The notes under the pieces are model-generated. The model made no database searches. It worked only from the letters and a program-made list of their open reading frames with translations, and had not been told where the DNA came from. From a virus (Duplodnaviria; Caudoviricetes), in IMG/VR virus record IMGVR_UViG_3300037787_000006, positions 1-32,340 of that record: a stretch of DNA of 32,340 nucleotides. One strand, written 5' to 3'. This document shows positions 9,579 through 32,091 of the stretch, one piece after another; the first letter of the stretch is position 1; every line of letters starts with the position of its first letter. The position numbers and the translations under genes are program-made.

Positions 9579-10738
9579 CTAAAGGACATAATACGCGGGG
9601 GCTTTTTTGTTACCTAAGCGTTTCATGCTGATATATCTCAGCGCGTCTATGCCGTGATTAAAGGCGTCAATAGGTTTGTTGGTTTTTGCGCCTGTTTTGT
9701 CTGTTTCCCATGTGTATGATCTCAGCTCTTTAATGATATTCAAACTTCGCTGTGTTACGTTCAGGGTGTACTCCTGCAAGATAGCTATACCCGCGTTAAC
9801 GCTGTCTTTGCCTTTGTCGGCTGGGTGTACGTTCAACCCTGCACGCCTTAGCTCCGCTATGCTTTTTGGCTCTGCGCTATCTGCTATAATGTACTTGTTC
9901 TTCAGTAGCCGCGCAATGTCGTTGTTAAGTAGCCCTGTTTGATAGACTACTTCATCAATATAAACCTGCCCATCGTGCCGGTACAAATCAACGGCGGCTG
10001 TTGGGTCGTTGGTAAATCCAAAGTCCAAGCCAGTGCCTAAATATTCAGCACCATCAGGTACCTGTGAAACTTGCCGCCAGTTCTCAAAAACAACACCCTG
10101 CAAACTACCTATCTCCCCAAGTCCGTACACCTGCCACCAGTTGCGCCAGTAGTCGGAGCGTTGCGCCTTTTCTTTGGCGGCTTCTATCTCCGCGCGTATG
10201 GATGGCTCCAGGGCTTCGTTGTCTAAATAGGTGAGCTTTACAAAGTCTGTTTTATCGTTGCCTATTAGCTCGGTGTGTGCCCAAAATTCGCTGGTTGGGT
10301 TGTAGTCTAAATAGATAAACTTTTTTGTCCTGATGGCTAGTTGCTGGTAGGCTTCAAAGGCTACATTGTTGGCTTCGTTGATAAACAGAACATCACGCCT
10401 TGCACCGCGTAGCTTGTCGGGTTGATCTACACTAAAAAATTCAATGTAGCTGCCATTTGTGAAGGTGTATGTTAGGCTGCTTTTGTTAAAGCGTGTATCA
10501 TCCCAATTTTCAGTCCAAAGCATTATCTTTTGAAAGTCGCGCAATGCACCGCGCCTAAGATGTGGTATGCTTTCTGCAACAATGCTAATTTCTGAGGCTT
10601 TGTTTTGAATAGCATATTGGATAAGTATCGGAATGATACTAAACGTTTTTGACGCGCTGGTCAGGTGCCGCCCTGAATGACGCGATGTCTACGTCTCAGG
10701 GCGGCTATCTTTTTTTGTGCTGTTGTTTTTTTAAGCAT
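9579..10738 (-). CDS. terL: terminase large subunit (PBSX-like), interrupted at Walker A by a 5-nt insertion; 384 aa if rejoined
   Basis: ATG 10738 gives MLKKTTAQKKIAALRRRHRVIQGGT-stop. A second frame from 10661 gives TSASKTFSIIPILIQYA...RRGALRDF..., then LRGARRDVLFINEAN (Walker B), DYNP, GLDFG and NHGIDALRY (nuclease). Confidence 0.9.
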
Positions 10739-10871: not shown

Positions 10872-11232
10872 CGTGATAAGTGTTTACAAGTTGTTGCAAT
10901 TCTTCTGCCAATGTGCGTACACATGGCGCGCAGCTAGTGGCCTTCTTTTTAGTGTTAAAAACGCGGTTGTATATCTGCAAAAGTTGCCGTTGCTGGTCGC
11001 TGGTAATGAATGGGCTTTTGTCTGCAAAGAATTTGCTCAGGTAGATATACTCTTTTTCTGTGAGGCATTGCGTGCCGCGATAAGGGAATAGCTCATTCAG
11101 CTTCTTGCGCCTTTCATTGCATCCGCAGTCTTCACCTGCCAGCCATTTAACGGCTTTGTCTATTCCTGTGGCTTTTGTGGCTTTGGCTATTGTGTCGCCA
11201 ACTCCAACGCTTTTTTTATTCGTTGTTTGCAT
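10831..11232 (-). CDS. Cys-rich hypothetical protein (possible Zn binding)
   Basis: 133 aa; GVGDTIAK...GEDCGCNERR and CAPC motifs. Confidence 0.7.
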   Translation of the reverse strand: MQTTNKKSVGVGDTIAKATKATGIDKAVKWLAGEDCGCNERRKKLNELFPYRGTQCLTEKEYIYLSKFFADKSPFITSDQQRQLLQIYNRVFNTKKKATSCAPCVRTLAEELQQLVNTYHDAPTKSKRRRKSK

Positions 11233-11687
11233 CGTTTAATAGTGTTAAATATCGTAGCTACGCTTATACCGGTGTCTTCGGCTAGCGTTCTCATGCTTAC
11301 TTCTTGGTCGTATTTTCGGCTCAGGTTAAAATACAAATCTAGCAGTTTTGCATCAAACCAATGAAAACGCGCTAAGGTGATGTGTATTGCTTCAATTTGC
11401 CTATCTGTAAAGGTTTGCTCATGTATTAGCATTTCGGCTAATTGTAGGCCGTCTAAATCGGTGTGCGGCTTGTTCTTGCGGCTGTGGTCGAGCGCGGTGT
11501 TGCGTACTATAAAAAAAAACAAGCCCTCAGTTATTGGCTTGTTCTTATTATTGGTGCTCCATTCTATAAGCTTTATGTAGCTATCTTGAACCACGTCTTC
11601 CGCCATATCTTGCGCGCCATATTTAAGCGCAACCGTTACCCATGAAGCGTGCTTTTTGTGTAGCTGTATGATCTCATTCTGGCACAT
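11187..11687 (-). CDS. sigma70/ECF-like RNA polymerase sigma factor
   Basis: 166 aa; region-2-like AEDVVQDSYIKL...VRNTALDHSRK and region-4 HTH SMRTLAEDTGISVATIFNTI. Confidence 0.8.
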   Translation of the reverse strand: MCQNEIIQLHKKHASWVTVALKYGAQDMAEDVVQDSYIKLIEWSTNNKNKPITEGLFFFIVRNTALDHSRKNKPHTDLDGLQLAEMLIHEQTFTDRQIEAIHITLARFHWFDAKLLDLYFNLSRKYDQEVSMRTLAEDTGISVATIFNTIKRCKQRIKKALELATQ

Positions 11688-13895: not shown

Positions 13896-14068
13896 ATCAA
13901 AAGATGCGTTTTGTTATCAATTACATTAAACTTTTGTAATTGATTAGGTATCTTATACAAGAAATTACGAGCTTCTTGGTTGCTCATCTCATCCATACCA
14001 ATAACGGCATACTTGTCAGTTTCGAATAACCATTTTCTAATTTCTCTGATTGTCATTTGTAGTTGCAT
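13886..14068 (-). CDS. hypothetical protein
   Basis: 60 aa; preceded by a -7 promoter and the AAACGCT leader. Confidence 0.65.
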   Translation of the reverse strand: MQLQMTIREIRKWLFETDKYAVIGMDEMSNQEARNFLYKIPNQLQKFNVIDNKTHLLIWS

Positions 14069-14092
14069 GATATCAGCGTTTTAATTATGGTA

Positions 14093-17486: not shown

Positions 17487-18860
17487 TTATAAAAATTTAG
17501 GTGTATTAATTACTTGATTGAATTCTTTTTTGTTAAGCTCTATTTTGCTTTCTGCAAGGTTTTTTTGAATTTCTTTATTGTACTGAATTGCACGTTCCGT
17601 TTTAAAATCTAAGGTATCCAAAACGCGCTTTTGCCCATCAGATAAAACAAGATCAACCGTTACGTTTTTAGTTTGTCCAAACCTCCAAAACCTTCTAATC
17701 GCTTGGTAATATTGCTCATAGCTCCAAGTAGGAAAATAAACCGTATGGTTACAGTGTTGCCAGTTTAAACCAAATGAAGTTATTTGCGGCTTAGTGATTA
17801 ACCGCTTAATATTACCTTCAGCAAAATTCATTAGAATATCTTCCTTTTTGTCCACGCTATCACTACCTTTTACTTGACTAGCTTCAGGGTCTAAATTTTG
17901 CAATAAGTCGCCTTCATCATTATAATGGCACCAATAAACGGAAGTCTTACCTTCAGCTAATTCTACCGCTTTTTCACATCGTTCTTTTATGCTGCCTTTC
18001 TGTTCTTCTCTCACTTCGCTCATACTTTTAGCAATGCCATTAAAAAGCATTATTTGCCCGCCTATATTCCAGTTCTTCTCATTCTTTACAAAGTGTGTAT
18101 TTGTAATTAATTCAGGCAAGATATAACGGTCATCAGCAAATCCTAAATCACTAGGTTTTTTTACATTAATAGACCACTGGTTAATCCATTTAAAAAAATC
18201 ATTTTTTGCATGGCCTTTTAAATACCATTTAGTGCCTATGTCTTGCGGTTTAAAATTATTTTCCTTATTAGAAAAAAACCGCTGTAACATATCCATATAG
18301 CTCATATAGCCCAAAGCCTCAGAGCTAGTGCCAAATTCAATATAATCATTTGGGCTTGGCGTTGCGGTGCTTAAAAAACGGTACTTAATGTTTTTCAAAA
18401 AAGAAGTAATCTGACGTTTAATCTTGCCGTTAAAGTTCTTTAATATAGAGCTTTCATCAAGAATAACACCTTCAAAATCTGTGGCCTTCAAATAGTGTAA
18501 CCTTTCATAGTTACAAACTATTATCTTTTTGCCTTCAAATTCTCCCGCCTTGCTTTGGTGTATATCGTCAGTTATTTTAGCAAATTTAGCCTCCTTTATA
18601 AACTGAAAACCAACCGCCAGCGGGGTAAGTATCAGCACCCTTTTATTAGTATGCCTTACAATGTTTTCAGCTATGGTTAACTGCATCAATGTTTTGCCCA
18701 AACCAGTATCAGCAAAAATAGCTATACGGCCTTTTTTAACAGAGCGTTCAATAATGTGCCGCTGAAAGTCAAAAGCAATGTCAGGGTAATAATTCGGTTC
18801 AAAACCAAAATCACCTATTAAATGCTTTTTACGTTCTAAAAAATCTAAGTAGTCCTTCAT
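17487..18860 (-). CDS. SNF2-like superfamily II helicase
   Basis: 457 aa; DTGLGKT, LDES, TATP, GLNWQ, QAIRRFWRFGQ. Confidence 0.9.
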   Translation of the reverse strand: MKDYLDFLERKKHLIGDFGFEPNYYPDIAFDFQRHIIERSVKKGRIAIFADTGLGKTLMQLTIAENIVRHTNKRVLILTPLAVGFQFIKEAKFAKITDDIHQSKAGEFEGKKIIVCNYERLHYLKATDFEGVILDESSILKNFNGKIKRQITSFLKNIKYRFLSTATPSPNDYIEFGTSSEALGYMSYMDMLQRFFSNKENNFKPQDIGTKWYLKGHAKNDFFKWINQWSINVKKPSDLGFADDRYILPELITNTHFVKNEKNWNIGGQIMLFNGIAKSMSEVREEQKGSIKERCEKAVELAEGKTSVYWCHYNDEGDLLQNLDPEASQVKGSDSVDKKEDILMNFAEGNIKRLITKPQITSFGLNWQHCNHTVYFPTWSYEQYYQAIRRFWRFGQTKNVTVDLVLSDGQKRVLDTLDFKTERAIQYNKEIQKNLAESKIELNKKEFNQVINTPKFL

Positions 18861-18865
18861 AATAT

Positions 18866-19363
18866 TTAAGCGTTTAATTTATCCCAAAAATATAAAAATT
18901 CATCAACCGTACCAACAACATAAACATCGCCCCACTGGCTTTTTATAAATTGCTTCTGAGCTTCGCTTAATTTGTCGCTACCAATCTTGACCTCAAAATA
19001 AAGTGGGTATTGTCTTGGCCGCATAACTCGTATGTCAGGCTCCCCAACAATCTGGTCAGCGTTTTTCACATAGGTAACACTAGCTACCCTGCCGTGCTCC
19101 TTGCCGCCTATAAAGCGGCTTACGTGCTTTTTACCGCTATTGGCAACCTTTACAGCGCACCAGTCTTTGCGGCGCTCATTTACCCACTTAATGATAAAAC
19201 GCTCCAGCCAGATAGAAAGGTAGTTGCGGTGGCCTGTGCGCTCGTAAATCGTATCAACTTTCAAAGCATAGCGCGTGTCTATACCGCGCCTGTTTATGTA
19301 CCAAGTATTAATACGCTCATAAGCCTCAGGGCTGCAAATTTGCATTAGTTTTTTACGTGGCAT
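18866..19363 (-). CDS. VRR-NUC (PD-(D/E)XK) nuclease
   Basis: GEPDI...YFEVKIGSDKLSEAQKQF; ATG 19363 preferred over the track start 19381. Confidence 0.75.
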   Translation of the reverse strand: MPRKKLMQICSPEAYERINTWYINRRGIDTRYALKVDTIYERTGHRNYLSIWLERFIIKWVNERRKDWCAVKVANSGKKHVSRFIGGKEHGRVASVTYVKNADQIVGEPDIRVMRPRQYPLYFEVKIGSDKLSEAQKQFIKSQWGDVYVVGTVDEFLYFWDKLNA

Positions 19364-19646
19364 CGCTTGTAAGTTTTTCACCTGTTAATACTTTCCAAAG
19401 TGCTTGCAGCTCGTGCATTTTGGTTATTCCGCGTAAGCTTACTGTTTGCTCATAATCAGCCCAGCTAGCAGGTTCTTGCGCAATTATAGGGTAATAAATG
19501 CCGTGCGATAGGTGCAACAATAAAGCGTGCGTTACGTCATAACGTTTTTCAAACATATGACGCCCCTTTAACTCTTCAAACCCACACGCCACTAACCTCT
19601 CAGGCGTTATGTCTAGCATCCGCTCAATGTGTGCTTTATTCCCCAT
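19353..19646 (-). CDS. hypothetical protein
   Basis: 97 aa; ITPERLVACGF...HELQALWKVLTGEKL. Confidence 0.7.
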   Translation of the reverse strand: MGNKAHIERMLDITPERLVACGFEELKGRHMFEKRYDVTHALLLHLSHGIYYPIIAQEPASWADYEQTVSLRGITKMHELQALWKVLTGEKLTSDAT

Positions 19647-19917
19647 CGTGATGCGCTTTAATCATGTTAGCCACATTACCGGGAGTAACACTAAACATCT
19701 TCGCTATTTGCGCAAATGTTACGCTCGTTTCCTTACGTATGCGGTAAAAGATTAATGCCCGCGCTTTAGCAGCTTTGTGCGTTGTTTCAGTGAATAGTGC
19801 ATCGCGGTGAATAAGTGCCGTGTCGGCTACCTCTTCAATAATGCGAAGTACGGAGTCAGCGTCTTCGCTGACTCCTAGTACTTCCTTAACTTTAAAATGG
19901 CAAATCATCTTCTTCAT
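19636..19917 (-). CDS. HTH protein (DnaA C-terminal-like)
   Basis: 93 aa; KARALIFY...TFAQIAKMFSVTPGNV. Confidence 0.55.
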   Translation of the reverse strand: MKKMICHFKVKEVLGVSEDADSVLRIIEEVADTALIHRDALFTETTHKAAKARALIFYRIRKETSVTFAQIAKMFSVTPGNVANMIKAHHDGE

Positions 19918-20722: not shown

Positions 20723-21026
20723 TAGTTTTAGCGATTAATAATTCTAGTTCTTTAATCTGCTCAGGTGTAAAAGGCTCTACATCATCAAAATCCATTACAT
20801 GAAGGTTAGCCACATCCACACTGGTAACAATATCCCAGTTCTCATAGTAACACCCAGAAGGCGTATCTATTTTATCCCTTTCAGTAAGCCAGTTAACCTT
20901 ACAGCTAAAATCAACGCCAAATTCGTGGCCGTTAACTTGTACGGTGTAATTGCCGCCTGAGTAGAATATCTCAGCTTTCTCTTTTAAAATAGGCGTTAAA
21001 GCCTGCATAAAATCTTGTGTATTCAT
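20706..21026 (-). CDS. hypothetical protein (106 aa)
   Basis: Start moved to ATG 21026 (MNTQDF...) because the promoter and conserved leader lie at 21030-21057. Confidence 0.7.
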   Translation of the reverse strand: MNTQDFMQALTPILKEKAEIFYSGGNYTVQVNGHEFGVDFSCKVNWLTERDKIDTPSGCYYENWDIVTSVDVANLHVMDFDDVEPFTPEQIKELELLIAKTIEEYA

Positions 21027-21049
21027 CTTGTTAGCGTTTAAATTCTTAG

Positions 21050-21066: not shown

Positions 21067-21402
21067 CTAATACGGAAAAACATTTACATAATACTTTGCC
21101 TTCTTTTCTTTTTTAGGCTCAGGGGCTAATCTTTGATCTCGGCGTATGGAATACACGCGGCTAGGGTCAACGTGAAGCGTGCGCGTAATGTAACGCACGC
21201 TTTTACTCTCTTTTAGCAACCTTATAATCTCTGCCGTTTGTTCCGCTTTTTTAGCGGCATGGTGTGCCTTTATTTCGGCTTTTAGCTCTGGGCACGCCCT
21301 CAGGTGCTTGTCAATGTAATGCTGGGTAAACTCGGTGTTATCCTCTACTTTCTTACGCGAGTATTCGTACTTGCGGAATGCTAATGTAATTTCGTGGTTC
21401 AT
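21067..21402 (-). CDS. HTH-containing hypothetical protein
   Basis: 111 aa; IIRLLKESKSVRYITRTLHVDPSRVYSI. Confidence 0.6.
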   Translation of the reverse strand: MNHEITLAFRKYEYSRKKVEDNTEFTQHYIDKHLRACPELKAEIKAHHAAKKAEQTAEIIRLLKESKSVRYITRTLHVDPSRVYSIRRDQRLAPEPKKEKKAKYYVNVFPY

Positions 21403-21581
21403 TGCTTTTCTTTTACAGTTATTATTAAAGACTTTACAAAAGCTTCATAATCTTCTTCAGATAAATGCTTTGGTTTAGTTAAAATAAGCATTGGTGAGGA
21501 TACGCTTCCTTCTTGCTTCCAAATAGAAAACCCTTTGTAATGGTATTTTTCTATTGTGTATATTATTTCTTTTTCACTCAT
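21399..21581 (-). CDS. hypothetical protein
   Basis: 60 aa; ATGA overlaps on both sides. Confidence 0.65.
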   Translation of the reverse strand: MSEKEIIYTIEKYHYKGFSIWKQEGSVSSPMLILTKPKHLSEEDYEAFVKSLIITVKEKQ

Positions 21582-21772
21582 CTTGCGGCTTCTTTTTTGA
21601 TTTGTTCTTCAATCTTTTCTATCTCTTTATCAAGCGTTTTATTCATACGCTTAAACTCGTTAAATAGCCCCTTATTCATGCTATTAAAAGCCCGGTAGTG
21701 CAGAACCTCCCCAGCTATTATAATGTAAATCAAAGCGGCTAAAATCACGCCTAAAAATATATCGTTAATCAT
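21578..21772 (-). CDS. small membrane-anchored coiled-coil protein
   Basis: 64 aa; N-terminal hydrophobic helix; ATGA overlaps. Confidence 0.65.
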   Translation of the reverse strand: MINDIFLGVILAALIYIIIAGEVLHYRAFNSMNKGLFNEFKRMNKTLDKEIEKIEEQIKKEAAR

Positions 21773-22416
21773 ATCCCCCTAGCTTTTAAAATTCTTTCTG
21801 CTAAATCTATCTCCCATTGCTCATCGCGTTCAATGTCAAAACACTTCACGCGATCAGCCTCTGGTATATCGCCAAACTTCATATTTTTCTCAAGCTGTTC
21901 GGCTGCCTTTTGATAGGCTGCCATGTCGGCGTTATCTCCACCCATTCCATAATACAGCTTTCTTTTTTCGGCTTCTATCATCCATTCGGGTGCATCGGTT
22001 AGGCAGTATACCAATTTCGCTTTTGTTGCACCTGTTAGCCACATATAACCGCGCAGTTGCGCCTCGTAGTCTTTGGTCATTTCTGCCTTGTCAAAAGTCC
22101 AAATATCAAAGCTATTTTTAATGTCCAGCACCAAATCACCGCTAAGCACATCAGGGCTTCCTGTGATAAATTCGTTTTGATAGTTGAGCACATCCCGCAC
22201 AAAGCTAGTGCCAAGCACGCGGTTAATCATGTTCAGGGCTTCTAGTTCATTTACGTTGCCTTTAGTAACGTATTTGTTAGCAAATACAGGCCAGCGGCCA
22301 TACTTATTGCCAATTTTCACCTGACGTATTACGTCAATGGCGGTTAGACCAAACTCCTGGTCTTTACCTCTGCCGCGTGTTAAGAACGCGCCTAGTTGTG
22401 AGCAGCGTATTTTCAT
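21769..22416 (-). CDS. YqaJ / lambda-exonuclease-like nuclease
   Basis: 215 aa; IRCSQLG, KGNVNE, TGSPD, DIKNS, YEAQLRGYMWL. Confidence 0.8.
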   Translation of the reverse strand: MKIRCSQLGAFLTRGRGKDQEFGLTAIDVIRQVKIGNKYGRWPVFANKYVTKGNVNELEALNMINRVLGTSFVRDVLNYQNEFITGSPDVLSGDLVLDIKNSFDIWTFDKAEMTKDYEAQLRGYMWLTGATKAKLVYCLTDAPEWMIEAEKRKLYYGMGGDNADMAAYQKAAEQLEKNMKFGDIPEADRVKCFDIERDEQWEIDLAERILKARGI

Positions 22417-23093
22417 CTTTGTTTAGCGTTTAAATTAATTTTTTGATGTAATCTTTTAATTGAACCTGCTATTAAATCAGCACTTTGATTTAATATTTTT
22501 TCTGGAGTAGTAAAGTAATACCTTGCTATCACTCCAATATTTAAGTCAAATAATAACTTAGCTTCGTCTTTATGTTCAGGATATTTAGCAACAAACTCGT
22601 CAAAGTTGTTTTTATAGTCCTCAACATTAAATGATAAAAGGCGGTGCTTATCTGTTTTTTCAACAATACAAAACGCCCTAGAGTGTCTTGGTGTTATAGA
22701 TATTTCCGGGGCTAAACATTTTTTTGGGCCCTCATTAACGATGTAATTATAAAAACAATCATCACCTTTTAATGCATAATTCAATAGATTTTGACCATCA
22801 GTTGTATAACCATTTCTAATAGGGCTAAATGATAACCGTTGAAAATCATCAACCGTAAAGCCAAAACTTTTGAATGTATAGAATTTGTAGTCCATTTGTA
22901 AAACACAAGGATATTCTCCAACTTCTATTGTTTCGCATTTGTAATCGCCTTTTACCCATACATTACCAATGTAATTTCCTGCTTCATCATAAGCCTTAAC
23001 ACATTTTTCTTCATGATAACAGTTTTTAGCCATTAACATCGCTTTATTTCCGCTTATTTGAAGCTTTACATCTTGGTAACTAAACATTGTCAA
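22413..23093 (-). CDS. hypothetical protein (AT-rich)
   Basis: 226 aa; no recognisable motif. Confidence 0.7.
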   Translation of the reverse strand: MTMFSYQDVKLQISGNKAMLMAKNCYHEEKCVKAYDEAGNYIGNVWVKGDYKCETIEVGEYPCVLQMDYKFYTFKSFGFTVDDFQRLSFSPIRNGYTTDGQNLLNYALKGDDCFYNYIVNEGPKKCLAPEISITPRHSRAFCIVEKTDKHRLLSFNVEDYKNNFDEFVAKYPEHKDEAKLLFDLNIGVIARYYFTTPEKILNQSADLIAGSIKRLHQKINLNAKQR

Positions 23094-23325
23094 AGTTTTT
23101 GCTTTCAGCGTTTCTTAACTCAATGTTTTGGCGGTATTCCGCGTTATGCTTTGCAAGCTTCATTAAAGTGTTAGCCCTGTCAAGCTCATACTTCAAAGCA
23201 TTGTTTACTTGTTTAGATAATTCTGCTTGCGCTTTGGCTGTTGCCACGTCTATTTCGCCTTTGTCCAATTTATTCATTTGGTCAAAAATATGAGCCAAAA
23301 CAGACTTGTTGTTTACTGGTTTCAT
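23080..23325 (-). CDS. hypothetical helical protein
   Basis: 81 aa; has its own promoter and leader. Confidence 0.7.
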   Translation of the reverse strand: MKPVNNKSVLAHIFDQMNKLDKGEIDVATAKAQAELSKQVNNALKYELDRANTLMKLAKHNAEYRQNIELRNAESKNFDNV

Positions 23326-23350
23326 CTTGTTAAACGTTTAAATTAATAAT

Positions 23351-23409: not shown

Positions 23410-24039
23410 CTAAATTAAGAAGTCTGCAAAATCAGCATCCTGCTTAAACCTCTCATTGCTAGGCATATCCCAAAAGGCTTTAATCTGCTCAGGTGTTGGC
23501 GGTGGTGTTTGTTGCAGCCAGTCTAACGCGCGCTTCTTTTCTTGATCTACATAGCTTCCTGAGAAGGCCACAGTATCGCGCCTGTTTAAGTTGCTACCAA
23601 ACAGGCGGCCGATATTCTCAGCGGCATCTTTTACCGCGTAGCTTTTAGCCGCTGGCAAGGCCATCATTATTGCGTTTTGCTTTATGGCTCCGAGGTCTGA
23701 AGCACTTTTGCCCGCGTCTGTTTGCACGCCTACTGCCCCGGTACCATCGTGGTACATCCACTCGTTGGTTAACGGGTTTTTGTAGTGCAGGCGCACGGTA
23801 ACGTAAACGCTGTTAAACATTTGCCCCTCGCGCAGCACTTCTATCTTCCAATGCTGGAAGATGCGTGTTAAAAGCAGCTCTATTTTATCAATAGGAAGAT
23901 AGGCTGTATTCCCCGCGTATGGGTTGCGTTTAACCCACTTTGCAGGCGGGTCTTGATTAAGTAGCAGGTTTAACTTGTCGTTTTTGTCAGCCGCAGTTAT
24001 GTCGTGGTGCAGCTCTGCTAATGTTGGTAATTTGCTCAT
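23410..24039 (-). CDS. Rad52/Sak-like single-strand annealing protein
   Basis: 209 aa; YLPIDKIE, VTVRLH, DGTGA, AKSYAVKDAAENIGRLFG. Confidence 0.7.
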   Translation of the reverse strand: MSKLPTLAELHHDITAADKNDKLNLLLNQDPPAKWVKRNPYAGNTAYLPIDKIELLLTRIFQHWKIEVLREGQMFNSVYVTVRLHYKNPLTNEWMYHDGTGAVGVQTDAGKSASDLGAIKQNAIMMALPAAKSYAVKDAAENIGRLFGSNLNRRDTVAFSGSYVDQEKKRALDWLQQTPPPTPEQIKAFWDMPSNERFKQDADFADFLI

Positions 24040-24071
24040 TGTTTAGCGTTTATTGAATTAATAGTTAAGTG

Positions 24072-24091
24072 AAAAAAGGGCTTGCGCCCTT
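24072..24091 (-). terminator. intrinsic terminator after the first early gene
   Basis: AAGGGC-GCAA-GCCC-TTTTTT (GNRA loop). Confidence 0.7.
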
Positions 24092-24095
24092 CGTG

Positions 24096-24281
24096 TTATT
24101 TTGAATTAAGGTAATTTTTGCAAGAGTTAATCAATTCATCAAATTGACCTGTATTATCTAAAATTGACCTTATAGCCTCTTCAGGTGTTAGACCTTGTTC
24201 AAATGCTCTATTCATTGCAATGTGAAAGGCTCCGAAAACTGCGCTTGCGTTTTTAGTAATGTTTGTTTCTTGAGTTGTCAT
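24096..24281 (-). CDS. hypothetical protein, first gene of the early region
   Basis: 61 aa; promoter and conserved leader upstream, terminator downstream. Confidence 0.7.
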   Translation of the reverse strand: MTTQETNITKNASAVFGAFHIAMNRAFEQGLTPEEAIRSILDNTGQFDELINSCKNYLNSK

Positions 24282-24305
24282 CCTGTTAGCGTTTTAATTA
24301 TAAAG

Positions 24306-24357: not shown

Positions 24358-24385
24358 ATCATTTTGTTGGGTTCAACAAAATGAT
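24358..24385. repeat. perfect 12-bp inverted repeat
   Basis: ATCATTTTGTTG-GGTT-CAACAAAATGAT. Confidence 0.85.
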
Positions 24386-24396
24386 TTTTTATTCAT

Positions 24397-24424
24397 AAAA
24401 AAAGCCCCCATCGCTGGAGGCTTT
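24397..24424 (-). terminator. intrinsic terminator ending the late/lysis operon and the candidate sRNA
   Basis: AAAGCCTCCA-GCGA-TGGGGGC-TTTTTTT. Confidence 0.8.
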
Positions 24425-24480
24425 AAACGCTTAACATATGAAGAACTACTACTACATGAGCTAGGTACGCTCTAGAGAGG
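24397..24480 (-). ncRNA. candidate trans-acting antisense small RNA
   Basis: Lies between TATCTTTG (24482-24489) and a terminator; contains AGTAGTTCTTCATATGTTAAGCGTTTAAA, complementary to several early-gene start regions. Confidence 0.55.
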
Positions 24481-24495
24481 TCAAAGATAATGTAT

Positions 24496-25524
24496 TTATC
24501 TGATTTGGCCCTTTATTATTCTTAGGTTGTCTACTTCAAAATTTCCATCCTTGTAAACCTTTATAAACGCGAAGCCGTGGTTCCATTTGTTTATACGCAT
24601 ATAGTCTGGGTGTAAATGACAAAGGCACCCGGTGCTCCACGCTGTAACGACTTGGCCGTTCAAATTAGGCTCACTGTGCTCGCTGCTTTGGTGGTTGTGG
24701 CCTGCTAAAATGTTTGTTTTAGACCTCATGTAATATCCCCGCGCTGGGTTAACAGGGCTAAAGACACTACGCCCGAATTCATGGCCATGCATTACGTTTA
24801 ATTCGCCTATTTGAATGATACGGTCATCGGTAATGAGGTTAATACCAAGCTCGCCAAATCTCAGCAACACATCTAAACGAAATTCGCTTACATCTAAAAG
24901 CTCAGGTGCTTTAATGCGTAAAAATGCCTCATAACGTAACTCGTGGTTACCAAGCTTATAATAAATAACAGCATCAGGTAAGCGGTGTTTTAAGTAACTT
25001 AAAAATTGCCTAGTATCTTCAAGCTCCTGACTAAACCTTCTTTTTCGCGGGTCTTTTTCCCAGCGTGAAAGGCTATAACAGTCCATTATATCACCATTTA
25101 AAAGCACCGCGTTAGCTTTATTTTCTACGCCATAATCAATAGCTTTTTCAAGGCTTTCGGTGTCATGGTAGGGAATGTGAACATCACTAAGCACTAAAAT
25201 TCGCGTAGCGTTTTTAGGCATTTCATAAGGTAGCCACTCTTCATTATCGCTTTCGGGTATCGTGTAATAAGGCGAAGGAATGCCCATTTTTTTAGAGTTC
25301 TCAGCTGGATCTTTAATTAGTTCTCTATATGTTTTTTTGTTGCGTCTTTCTTTCCCTTTTACACCTCTGTAATAACGTATTATTATCCTAACCTGCTCAG
25401 CATCTTTAAAAAGTAAAGAGTTTTCAGCGTAGATTTTTTTCGCTAATGTCTGATTAGGCAAGTCAGGCCATTCTTTGAGATATTTTACGACTGTAGTTCC
25501 TTTTTGCGTTTTTTTTCTACTCAT
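24496..25524 (-). CDS. calcineurin-like metallophosphoesterase
   Basis: 342 aa; SDVH, NGD, GNHE, HGH, GHNH motifs. Confidence 0.9.
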   Translation of the reverse strand: MSRKKTQKGTTVVKYLKEWPDLPNQTLAKKIYAENSLLFKDAEQVRIIIRYYRGVKGKERRNKKTYRELIKDPAENSKKMGIPSPYYTIPESDNEEWLPYEMPKNATRILVLSDVHIPYHDTESLEKAIDYGVENKANAVLLNGDIMDCYSLSRWEKDPRKRRFSQELEDTRQFLSYLKHRLPDAVIYYKLGNHELRYEAFLRIKAPELLDVSEFRLDVLLRFGELGINLITDDRIIQIGELNVMHGHEFGRSVFSPVNPARGYYMRSKTNILAGHNHQSSEHSEPNLNGQVVTAWSTGCLCHLHPDYMRINKWNHGFAFIKVYKDGNFEVDNLRIIKGQIR

Positions 25525-31800: not shown

Positions 31801-32091
31801 TTACCACCAATTCACATCGTTAACATTCTCAACACTATTTAACTCTCTTCCTTTATAAAAATAGTATGTTTTAGGTTTAATTTCTATTCTAACAACATTA
31901 GGGCCTACGCTTGTTGCTAGCTCTATACTAATCGGTTTATTTTTATTATTAAGATTAATATTTATGCTTGATATAAGCACATCTCCATACGTACTACAAA
32001 AACAAATTAAATCATCAATAGTTTTAGAAGTAAAATCATCAAACCAAAAAAAAGTAATTTCTTTTTGTATTGTTTTATTAAAAGTTCCCAT
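31801..32091 (-). CDS. AT-rich moron-like hypothetical protein
   Basis: 96 aa; own promoter and terminator inside the structural region. Confidence 0.65.
   Translation of the reverse strand: MGTFNKTIQKEITFFWFDDFTSKTIDDLICFCSTYGDVLISSININLNNKNKPISIELATSVGPNVVRIEIKPKTYYFYKGRELNSVENVNDVNWW

Follow-up and report, generated by a model that had tools for sequence, protein, structure and literature searches.

The c4 RNA is a processed cloverleaf that controls one antirepressor operon in temperate proteobacterial phages. In phages P1/P7 this antisense RNA is classified as Rfam family RF01695 (PMC2864571). Other phage genes are shut off by cis-antisense RNAs, including sar of P22 and OOP and aQ of lambda, with sar blocking translation initiation, and the phage sRNAs treated in those sections of a 2025 review on which we draw act either on host genes or on single phage genes (PMC12197685). 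A further example is SviR, an RNA of ∼210 nt from the PLE of Vibrio cholerae that is described as flanked by inverted repeats and as having two seeds (10.1101/2022.04.08.487710). In Bacteroides thetaiotaomicron the trans-encoded sRNA GibS is reported to repress mRNAs that lack a Shine-Dalgarno (SD) sequence by pairing over the start-codon region (PMC7366714).

The locus considered here occupies positions 24397-24489 (minus strand) of the window, by which we mean the whole 32,340-nt stretch of DNA that was analyzed, and probably encodes an ∼80-nt trans-acting sRNA that would pair with a tag and the AUG of the phage's own early mRNAs, damping their translation. With GibS it shares an AT-rich sequence, a long seed over the start-codon region and a Rho-independent terminator (PMC7366714). 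However, GibS, as presented in the part of that report used here, is host-encoded, 145 nt in length and directed at two metabolic targets with no repeated tag, whereas the window unit is phage-encoded and faces the phage's own tagged early starts, and there is no sequence or Rfam match between the two. As with c4, a phage RNA would act in trans, its complementary sites lying at other places in the phage's own genome. Unlike c4 it matches several unlinked early starts; the c4 model RF01695 is absent from the 23 Rfam matches up to E=10, and the kind of target that c4 controls, an antirepressor operon of a temperate phage, has no counterpart in an annotation without any antirepressor, repressor or integrase family. 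SviR resembles it as an sRNA of a mobile element that has a promoter and a terminator of its own, pairs close to the 5' UTRs of several transcripts of the element and of the phage, and reduces the translation of one of them, but SviR is satellite-encoded and targets a helper phage, and no shared start-codon tag is described in the available part of that study. While sar, OOP and aQ each control one gene, according to the review sections cited above, the window unit lies 0.1-10 kb from targets that it matches imperfectly. A search of Rfam 15 with the whole window gave 0 matches at E≤1 and one with 6 relative loci gave 0 matches, the best score in a local scan being 27.5 bits against a gathering threshold of 55 (Phe_leader, terminator part only); the unit belongs to no Rfam family. 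The initial annotation of this DNA had named no described system of this kind, and our literature search, which covered mainly open-access sources, likewise brought to light no phage sRNA directed against a start tag common to the phage's own early genes.

The phage genome is complete and circular, with a length of 32.2 kb and a 127-nt terminal repeat, and the window comprises all of it. All of the long ORFs are on the minus strand, and the only cultured phages matched by the capsid and portal proteins are the Nonlabens phages P12024L/S (32% and 35%). Comparison with PHROGs and Pfam delineates a late block with portal, tail, lysis and a phosphoesterase ending at 24496, and an early block that extends from 24281 down to about 13100 and includes genes for a Sak/Rad52-like protein, an exonuclease, SSB, an SNF2 helicase, a methylase, a Rep-like protein and a DnaB-like helicase; a sigma-70-like protein is encoded at 11187-11687. 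It had been proposed that the phage has no evident repressor and, in agreement, no integrase, repressor or antirepressor family was found among 53 proteins compared with PHROGs or 28 compared with Pfam, many small ORFs being without annotation. We infer that the host of this uncultured aquatic phage belongs to the Bacteroidota, likely of Flavobacteria type, an assignment that fits the TAnnTTTG boxes and the A-rich, SD-less starts as these are described for such bacteria (PMC9723704, PMC6847099).

The frame of the large terminase is broken within a Walker-A-like motif near 10660 (10661-10738, minus, and 9579-10544), the N-terminal 25 codons lying in one frame and the remainder in another, for which assembly error, mutation or recoding may be responsible. 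Late operon starts (upstream of 31686, 9548, 2756 and 2138, and in the late genes of contig L104) carry AAAA(C)...(T)ACGTTTT or GCGTTTT at 7-12 nt before the ATG, and the late genes of P12024L have a similar motif, TAAAACAAA...CGTTA. The CGT(T) box, ∼10 nt before the ATG in several late genes, resembles an ECF-type promoter and would give rise to mRNAs that have very short leaders or are nearly leaderless.

A detector that looks for a box, a body and a terminator finds 24397-24489 (minus) to be the sole such unit in the genome, consisting of a TAnnTTTG box, a 60-nt body and a terminator with a GNRA loop. The Bacteroidota sigma-A -7 box, TATCTTTG, is located at 24482-24489 (minus) with no TTTG at -33 and, taking the box to span -12 to -5 from the start (PMC9723704), transcription is predicted to begin near 24477, giving the RNA of ∼80 nt (24397-24477, minus). 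The predicted RNA contains a segment complementary to a start codon and early codons, AGUAGUUCUUCAUA (24437-24450, minus), then an anti-leader seed, UUAAGCGUUUAA (24423-24434, minus), complementary to an AAACG(C/U)U tag, and finally an intrinsic-terminator-like hairpin (24397-24421, minus) whose stem and loop, GCCUCCA-GCGA-UGGGGGC, extend from 24421 to 24404 and are followed by 7 U at 24403-24397. At the level of sequence, a non-coding gap here carries its own promoter and intrinsic terminator, as is expected of an sRNA gene. The positions given in the initial annotation for the promoter element, for the GNRA terminator and for a 29-mer between them (24450-24422) all check out. Its remark that this is the only inverted copy of the motif applies to the extended motif, with 1 plus-strand match, but not to the 7-mer AAACGCT, which occurs 6 times on the plus strand. 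In the fold predicted from the putative start UAGUUCUU is open and AAGCGUU is weakly paired with the 5' end, more loosely so in relatives; the seed is partly hidden under pairing with the 5' GAGCGU, with an opening cost of 4-7 kcal/mol. The RNA data derive from one metatranscriptome, in the form of contigs only and at low depth over the bin, and can show neither ends nor strand. Between the terminator and the first early promoter there is, in addition, a perfect 12-bp AT-rich inverted repeat (24358-24385), kept with some changes in the relatives L111, L113 and L114, that is possibly a protein-binding site.

The best predicted target is the leader and first codons of the SNF2-type helicase (start at 18860; 18848-18877, minus), the first gene of a helicase-methylase-Rep-DnaB run. 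This start had been put forward as the best match on account of a perfect 12-bp helix and a 14-bp helix with one G-U, and the calculation bears this out: with a 34-nt core of the RNA the duplex comprises 14 bp (one G-U, formed by 24437-24450) and 12 perfect bp at -32.8 kcal/mol, which ranks first among 55 starts and also among 2144 mRNA-strand windows, and the net value is -22.2 with opening energies. In the comparison with shuffled controls suggested at the same time, none of 500 dinucleotide shuffles reaches either the best value (shuffle mean -19.5, sd 2.2) or the mean of the top 6 pairings, -22.4 vs -16.8 for the shuffles (sd 1.05).

The AAACG(C/U)U tag precedes 8 of 26 early-region starts, the TTG at one of these being uncertain as a start, and none of the 29 others (Fisher p=0.0013); as the tag was defined from the finding itself, p-values of this kind are descriptive. 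In seven clear cases it sits -12 to -15 from the start codon, 8 of its 17 sense copies are located 6-25 nt before a start, and it keeps its place by the start codon even where there is no nearby promoter (22416, 24039). The position coincides with that of the A(-14..-11) initiation enhancer of Flavobacterium, an adenine run reported to enhance initiation in Flavobacterium johnsoniae (PMC6847099). When opening costs are included the net energies are clear only for SNF2, for the Sak/Rad52-like annealing protein (24039; 24027-24053, minus; -11.7) and for the exonuclease (22416; 22400-22435, minus; -11.5), the latter two having no promoter box within 60 nt. The remaining tagged starts have net values of -6.4 to -7.9, overlapping those of untagged late genes (4573 at -8.0, 26890 at -7.6), and early and late net energies show no overall difference (Mann-Whitney p=0.28). 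Among these starts, all on the minus strand, are that of an 81-aa ORF (23325; 23321-23343), where the 15-bp helix with one G-U noted previously is recovered with a modest net energy, that of a 106-aa ORF (21026; 21016-21042), that of the 61-aa first early ORF (24281; 24271-24295), a seed-only match, and that of a 60-aa ORF (14068; 14058-14082), which combines the seed with AACUAC after the AUG. The eighth tag (23107-23113, minus), 20 nt before the uncertain TTG start at 23093, has no favorable net pairing. A start at 32091 that had been listed as a weak match has no tag, is indistinguishable from background and has been dropped. Of the many early targets proposed initially, three are thus clear (SNF2, Sak and exonuclease), but four to five others are seed-only; with only three starts clear after accessibility, and the seed partly hidden, the case for these others rests on a seed of 7-10 nt.

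The unit is well conserved in close relatives. Logan contigs from four studies have no substitution in 24413-24462; they differ by a GCGA-to-GCAA change in the loop, by a promoter variant, TATATTTG, that alters an n position only, and by two 1-nt deletions, among them one next to the anti-AUG, at 24438, in a single contig. Of the sequencing runs, X2, X3, X4, X8 and X15 entered the comparison, the 22 other DNA runs having shares of 0.17-0.25. Over the 59 nt of stem and body three JGI relatives show substitutions at 2 loop positions only, both keeping GNRA (GCAA, GAGA) on an invariant stem, and one 3-nt repeat deletion, the pairing segment being left intact; in the same relatives varying sites number 100/630 in Sak, 126/781 in holin plus lysin and 13/83 in the adjacent spacer (each about 16%). 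In L113 the phosphoesterase is lost, and the promoter box and unit are retained directly behind the holin, so that the unit is independent of the phosphoesterase gene. The relatives therefore keep the inverted leader copy before the terminator, with no substitutions in the pairing region, as the initial annotation had proposed to look for, but the compensatory changes between homologous RNA and targets that it also sought were not found, close relatives being invariant and distant ones not alignable. Mid-distance relatives were not found among the viral contigs and loci searched; candidates for this range are Logan contigs whose Sak is 68-73% identical (P0004 and P0005). An exact seed-pattern scan of viral contigs gave 2 matches, both unrelated and due to chance; the phosphoesterase query gave 80 loci, with at most 62% identity and mostly non-syntenic; the holin query gave 4 loci, including L106 (96% holin), uninformative in that a different gene follows the holin and the contig stops after a further 0.7 kb; and a scan for the tag by itself returned 77 loci, most of which had 0-1 tagged starts and none of which had a seed-bearing unit, an outcome that speaks neither for nor against the RNA. 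The seed is conserved and is complementary to unlinked initiation regions beyond chance, as would be the case for an sRNA, and we consider the unit a real, conserved feature and likely an sRNA gene. What endures of the original sRNA interpretation is a discrete non-coding unit predicted to pair in trans with the phage's own early starts, as indicated by pairing statistics, conservation and similar units elsewhere (see below); what does not is the claim of many strong targets.

Small early genes are deleted or swapped in the relatives at 22410-23323, 24050-24278 and 21398-21769, and in the first two cases the exchange joints (22410>23320, 24050>24278) are at tagged leaders, whose repeats likely serve as cassette-exchange points as well. 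A strongly matching tagged leader in L114 (128-150; -27.3 kcal/mol) is followed by an ORF of 4 codons, which immediately precedes a longer inserted gene. An alternative is that the RNA is real but regulates one to three targets (the SNF2/replication operon, Sak and the exonuclease), with the other tags representing a shared strong leader spread by cassette exchange. It is in keeping with net energies that set apart 3 starts only and with gene swaps that, having joints at tagged leaders, would spread the tag without every copy being a target. We nonetheless consider it unlikely, as swapped-in early cassette genes of relatives also carry the tag and match the RNA, in one case over 15 nt perfectly (-30.4 kcal/mol), and as the tag is rare in two host-type genomes (MAGs), with 2 copies each before an ATG vs 5 and 6 for reversed-pattern controls, which argues against a generic strong leader. 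The same rarity favors self-regulation over host shut-off via the tag, which we reject on this small sample of 2 MAGs.

The orientation and placement of the tags bear on a second alternative, that the tag is a DNA operator, a near-palindrome TTAAACG(C/T)TTAA bound by a phage protein, with the copy at 24423-24434 serving as another site or as a decoy. The core of the tag is quasi-palindromic, five tags lie 9-11 nt after a -7 box and there is a weak HTH match at 19636-19917 (PF08299, below cut-off). Yet the gene-linked tags are all in the sense orientation at a fixed distance from the AUG, 2 of them away from any promoter, the consensus, AAACGCT, lacks symmetry, and an operator leaves unexplained both the 14-bp match across the AUG with its G-U and the GNRA-preserving loop changes, making this proposal improbable. 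We attach the same low probability to an action in cis, with early mRNA 5' ends pairing with the nascent late transcript upstream of the terminator to tune read-through, or to pairing that stabilizes or activates early mRNAs. The seed does adjoin the terminator stem and, with all genes on one strand of a circular map, read-through would enter the early genes; against this, the unit's own promoter box is conserved and persists even after loss of the upstream gene, and pairing that covers the AUG is usually repressive, as for GibS.

Units with a similar layout and other sequences occur in distant Bacteroidota phages. A box, a U-rich body and a terminator are found right behind the holin in portal-related G005, L085, L089, L091 and L093/L097 and in cultured P12024L/S, and G010 and G011, with 15 related proteins each, have no detector match. 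Over all fetched loci the detector finds 62 units in 47 clusters, some of them related to each other. TTTTCAT (anti-AUGAAAA) is present in 10/47 clusters vs 1.3 expected and TTCAT in 14/47 vs 5.4 (0 of 1000 shuffles in each case), the control word TTTACT being also enriched (4 vs 1.1). On the opposite strand the ATGs mirrored by the TTTTCAT units begin ORFs of only 4-36 codons, and therefore most of these units are not the reverse strands of real genes; three detector matches are artefacts of real opposite-strand ORFs (48-125 aa) and are retained in the 47- and 58-unit counts. With the longest perfect match as the measure, shuffled and non-cognate controls are both surpassed at p≤0.01 by 7 of 58 units, which represent 5 independent clusters including that of the window, and 15 of 58 beat shuffles at p≤0.05. 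In a whole-body energy test, run for 36 of 59 units, 1/36 beats both controls. When the match is anchored at the AUG, 4 of the 5 units tested do better than shuffles (p≤0.02). Among 12 whole or near-whole records, 5 have a unit that fits the record's own starts better than any other of the 15 start sets, and 10 have one for which its own starts rank in the top 3, in a matrix whose records were partly chosen for earlier matches and from which G003's unit (a duplicate of G002), one nested G009 match and two G014 matches were left out; the best match of the window's unit among the 15 start sets is with its own genome. Pairing with the held-out starts of G013-G015 is not significant, and the P12024L unit gives a borderline result, with p=0.022 when the longest match is scored and 0.89 when energy is. 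The unit of G001 has a 17-nt perfect match with its own Sak leader and, relative to the window's pair, unit and leaders show a matching AA/CG swap, but Sak is the only gene in common. Judged from these sequences the unit class is present in several lineages. The least probable of the alternatives, namely that the window's unit arose neutrally, as an inverted copy of the SNF2 start, or is a mini-gene of 8 codons on the plus strand (ATG 24438), or belongs to a U-rich 3' UTR whose matches to A-rich starts are due to composition, could draw on the failure of most distant U-rich units to beat shuffles, but composition-preserving shuffles do not reproduce the window unit's match, there are zero substitutions outside the loop while the flanks vary by about 16%, and 1-nt deletions, at 24463 in 3/3 JGI relatives and at 24438, disrupt the mini-ORF, which has no plus-strand promoter box nearby.

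Other units were encountered during this survey. In L007 (8861 and 8973), L008, L009, L011, L013 and L016, units running from promoter to terminator occur in tandem, their bodies being structured and conserved and their hairpin carrying a GGTTTGTGG loop; the bodies do not match local starts, and the units are possibly another small-RNA family with its seed in the loop. Further anti-AUG (TTCAT) promoter-terminator units are present in the independently retrieved viral contigs L280 (12642) and L312 (16671).

For the trans-acting sRNA that we favor, host sigma-A polymerase would transcribe the unit from the -7 box, and a late boost could come from read-through of the late operon, which would end at the unit's terminator so that the 3' end of the late transcript supplements the RNA. 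By covering the enhancer together with the AUG on tagged early mRNAs, the RNA would then block 30S loading, in the manner of GibS in Bacteroides (PMC7366714) and as the coincidence of tag and A(-14..-11) enhancer suggests for initiation of the kind described in PMC6847099. The effect would be strongest for the SNF2 helicase and the replication operon, and the location of the strongest site at the head of the helicase-methylase-Rep-DnaB run points to feedback on replication. Late mRNAs may escape, since late starts are without the tag. Its likely role is to feed back negatively, with a delay, on early and replication proteins while RNA and genome copies build up. A pure early-to-late switch, on the other hand, would need late read-through or accumulation, because the promoter of the unit is the same sigma-A type box as that of the early genes. 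The initial annotation's other suggestions, a carrier state and superinfection immunity, gain no support from the present analysis, in which no integrase was annotated among 53 proteins.

A more general proposal, which we put forward tentatively and would stop just short of calling probable, is that each Bacteroidota phage lineage has a private early tag in the A-rich enhancer and a mirror RNA (tag plus AUG) at the end of the late operon, and that this arrangement is widely used as a repressor-free timer, silencing the early regulon while untagged, near-leaderless late mRNAs escape. Private tags within an A-rich enhancer would suit hosts that do without Shine-Dalgarno pairing. The syntenic unit in cultured P12024L/S, whose RNA would run from about 9838 to 9895, provides a bench model and makes the class directly testable. 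How early and replication genes are shut down in repressor-less lytic phages is poorly understood outside a few models. If our interpretation is correct, it would account for the repeated early leaders and would offer a compact tag/anti-tag tool for SD-less Bacteroidota, and a self-tagged early regulon under a single RNA would represent regulation of a new design in this abundant group of aquatic phages.
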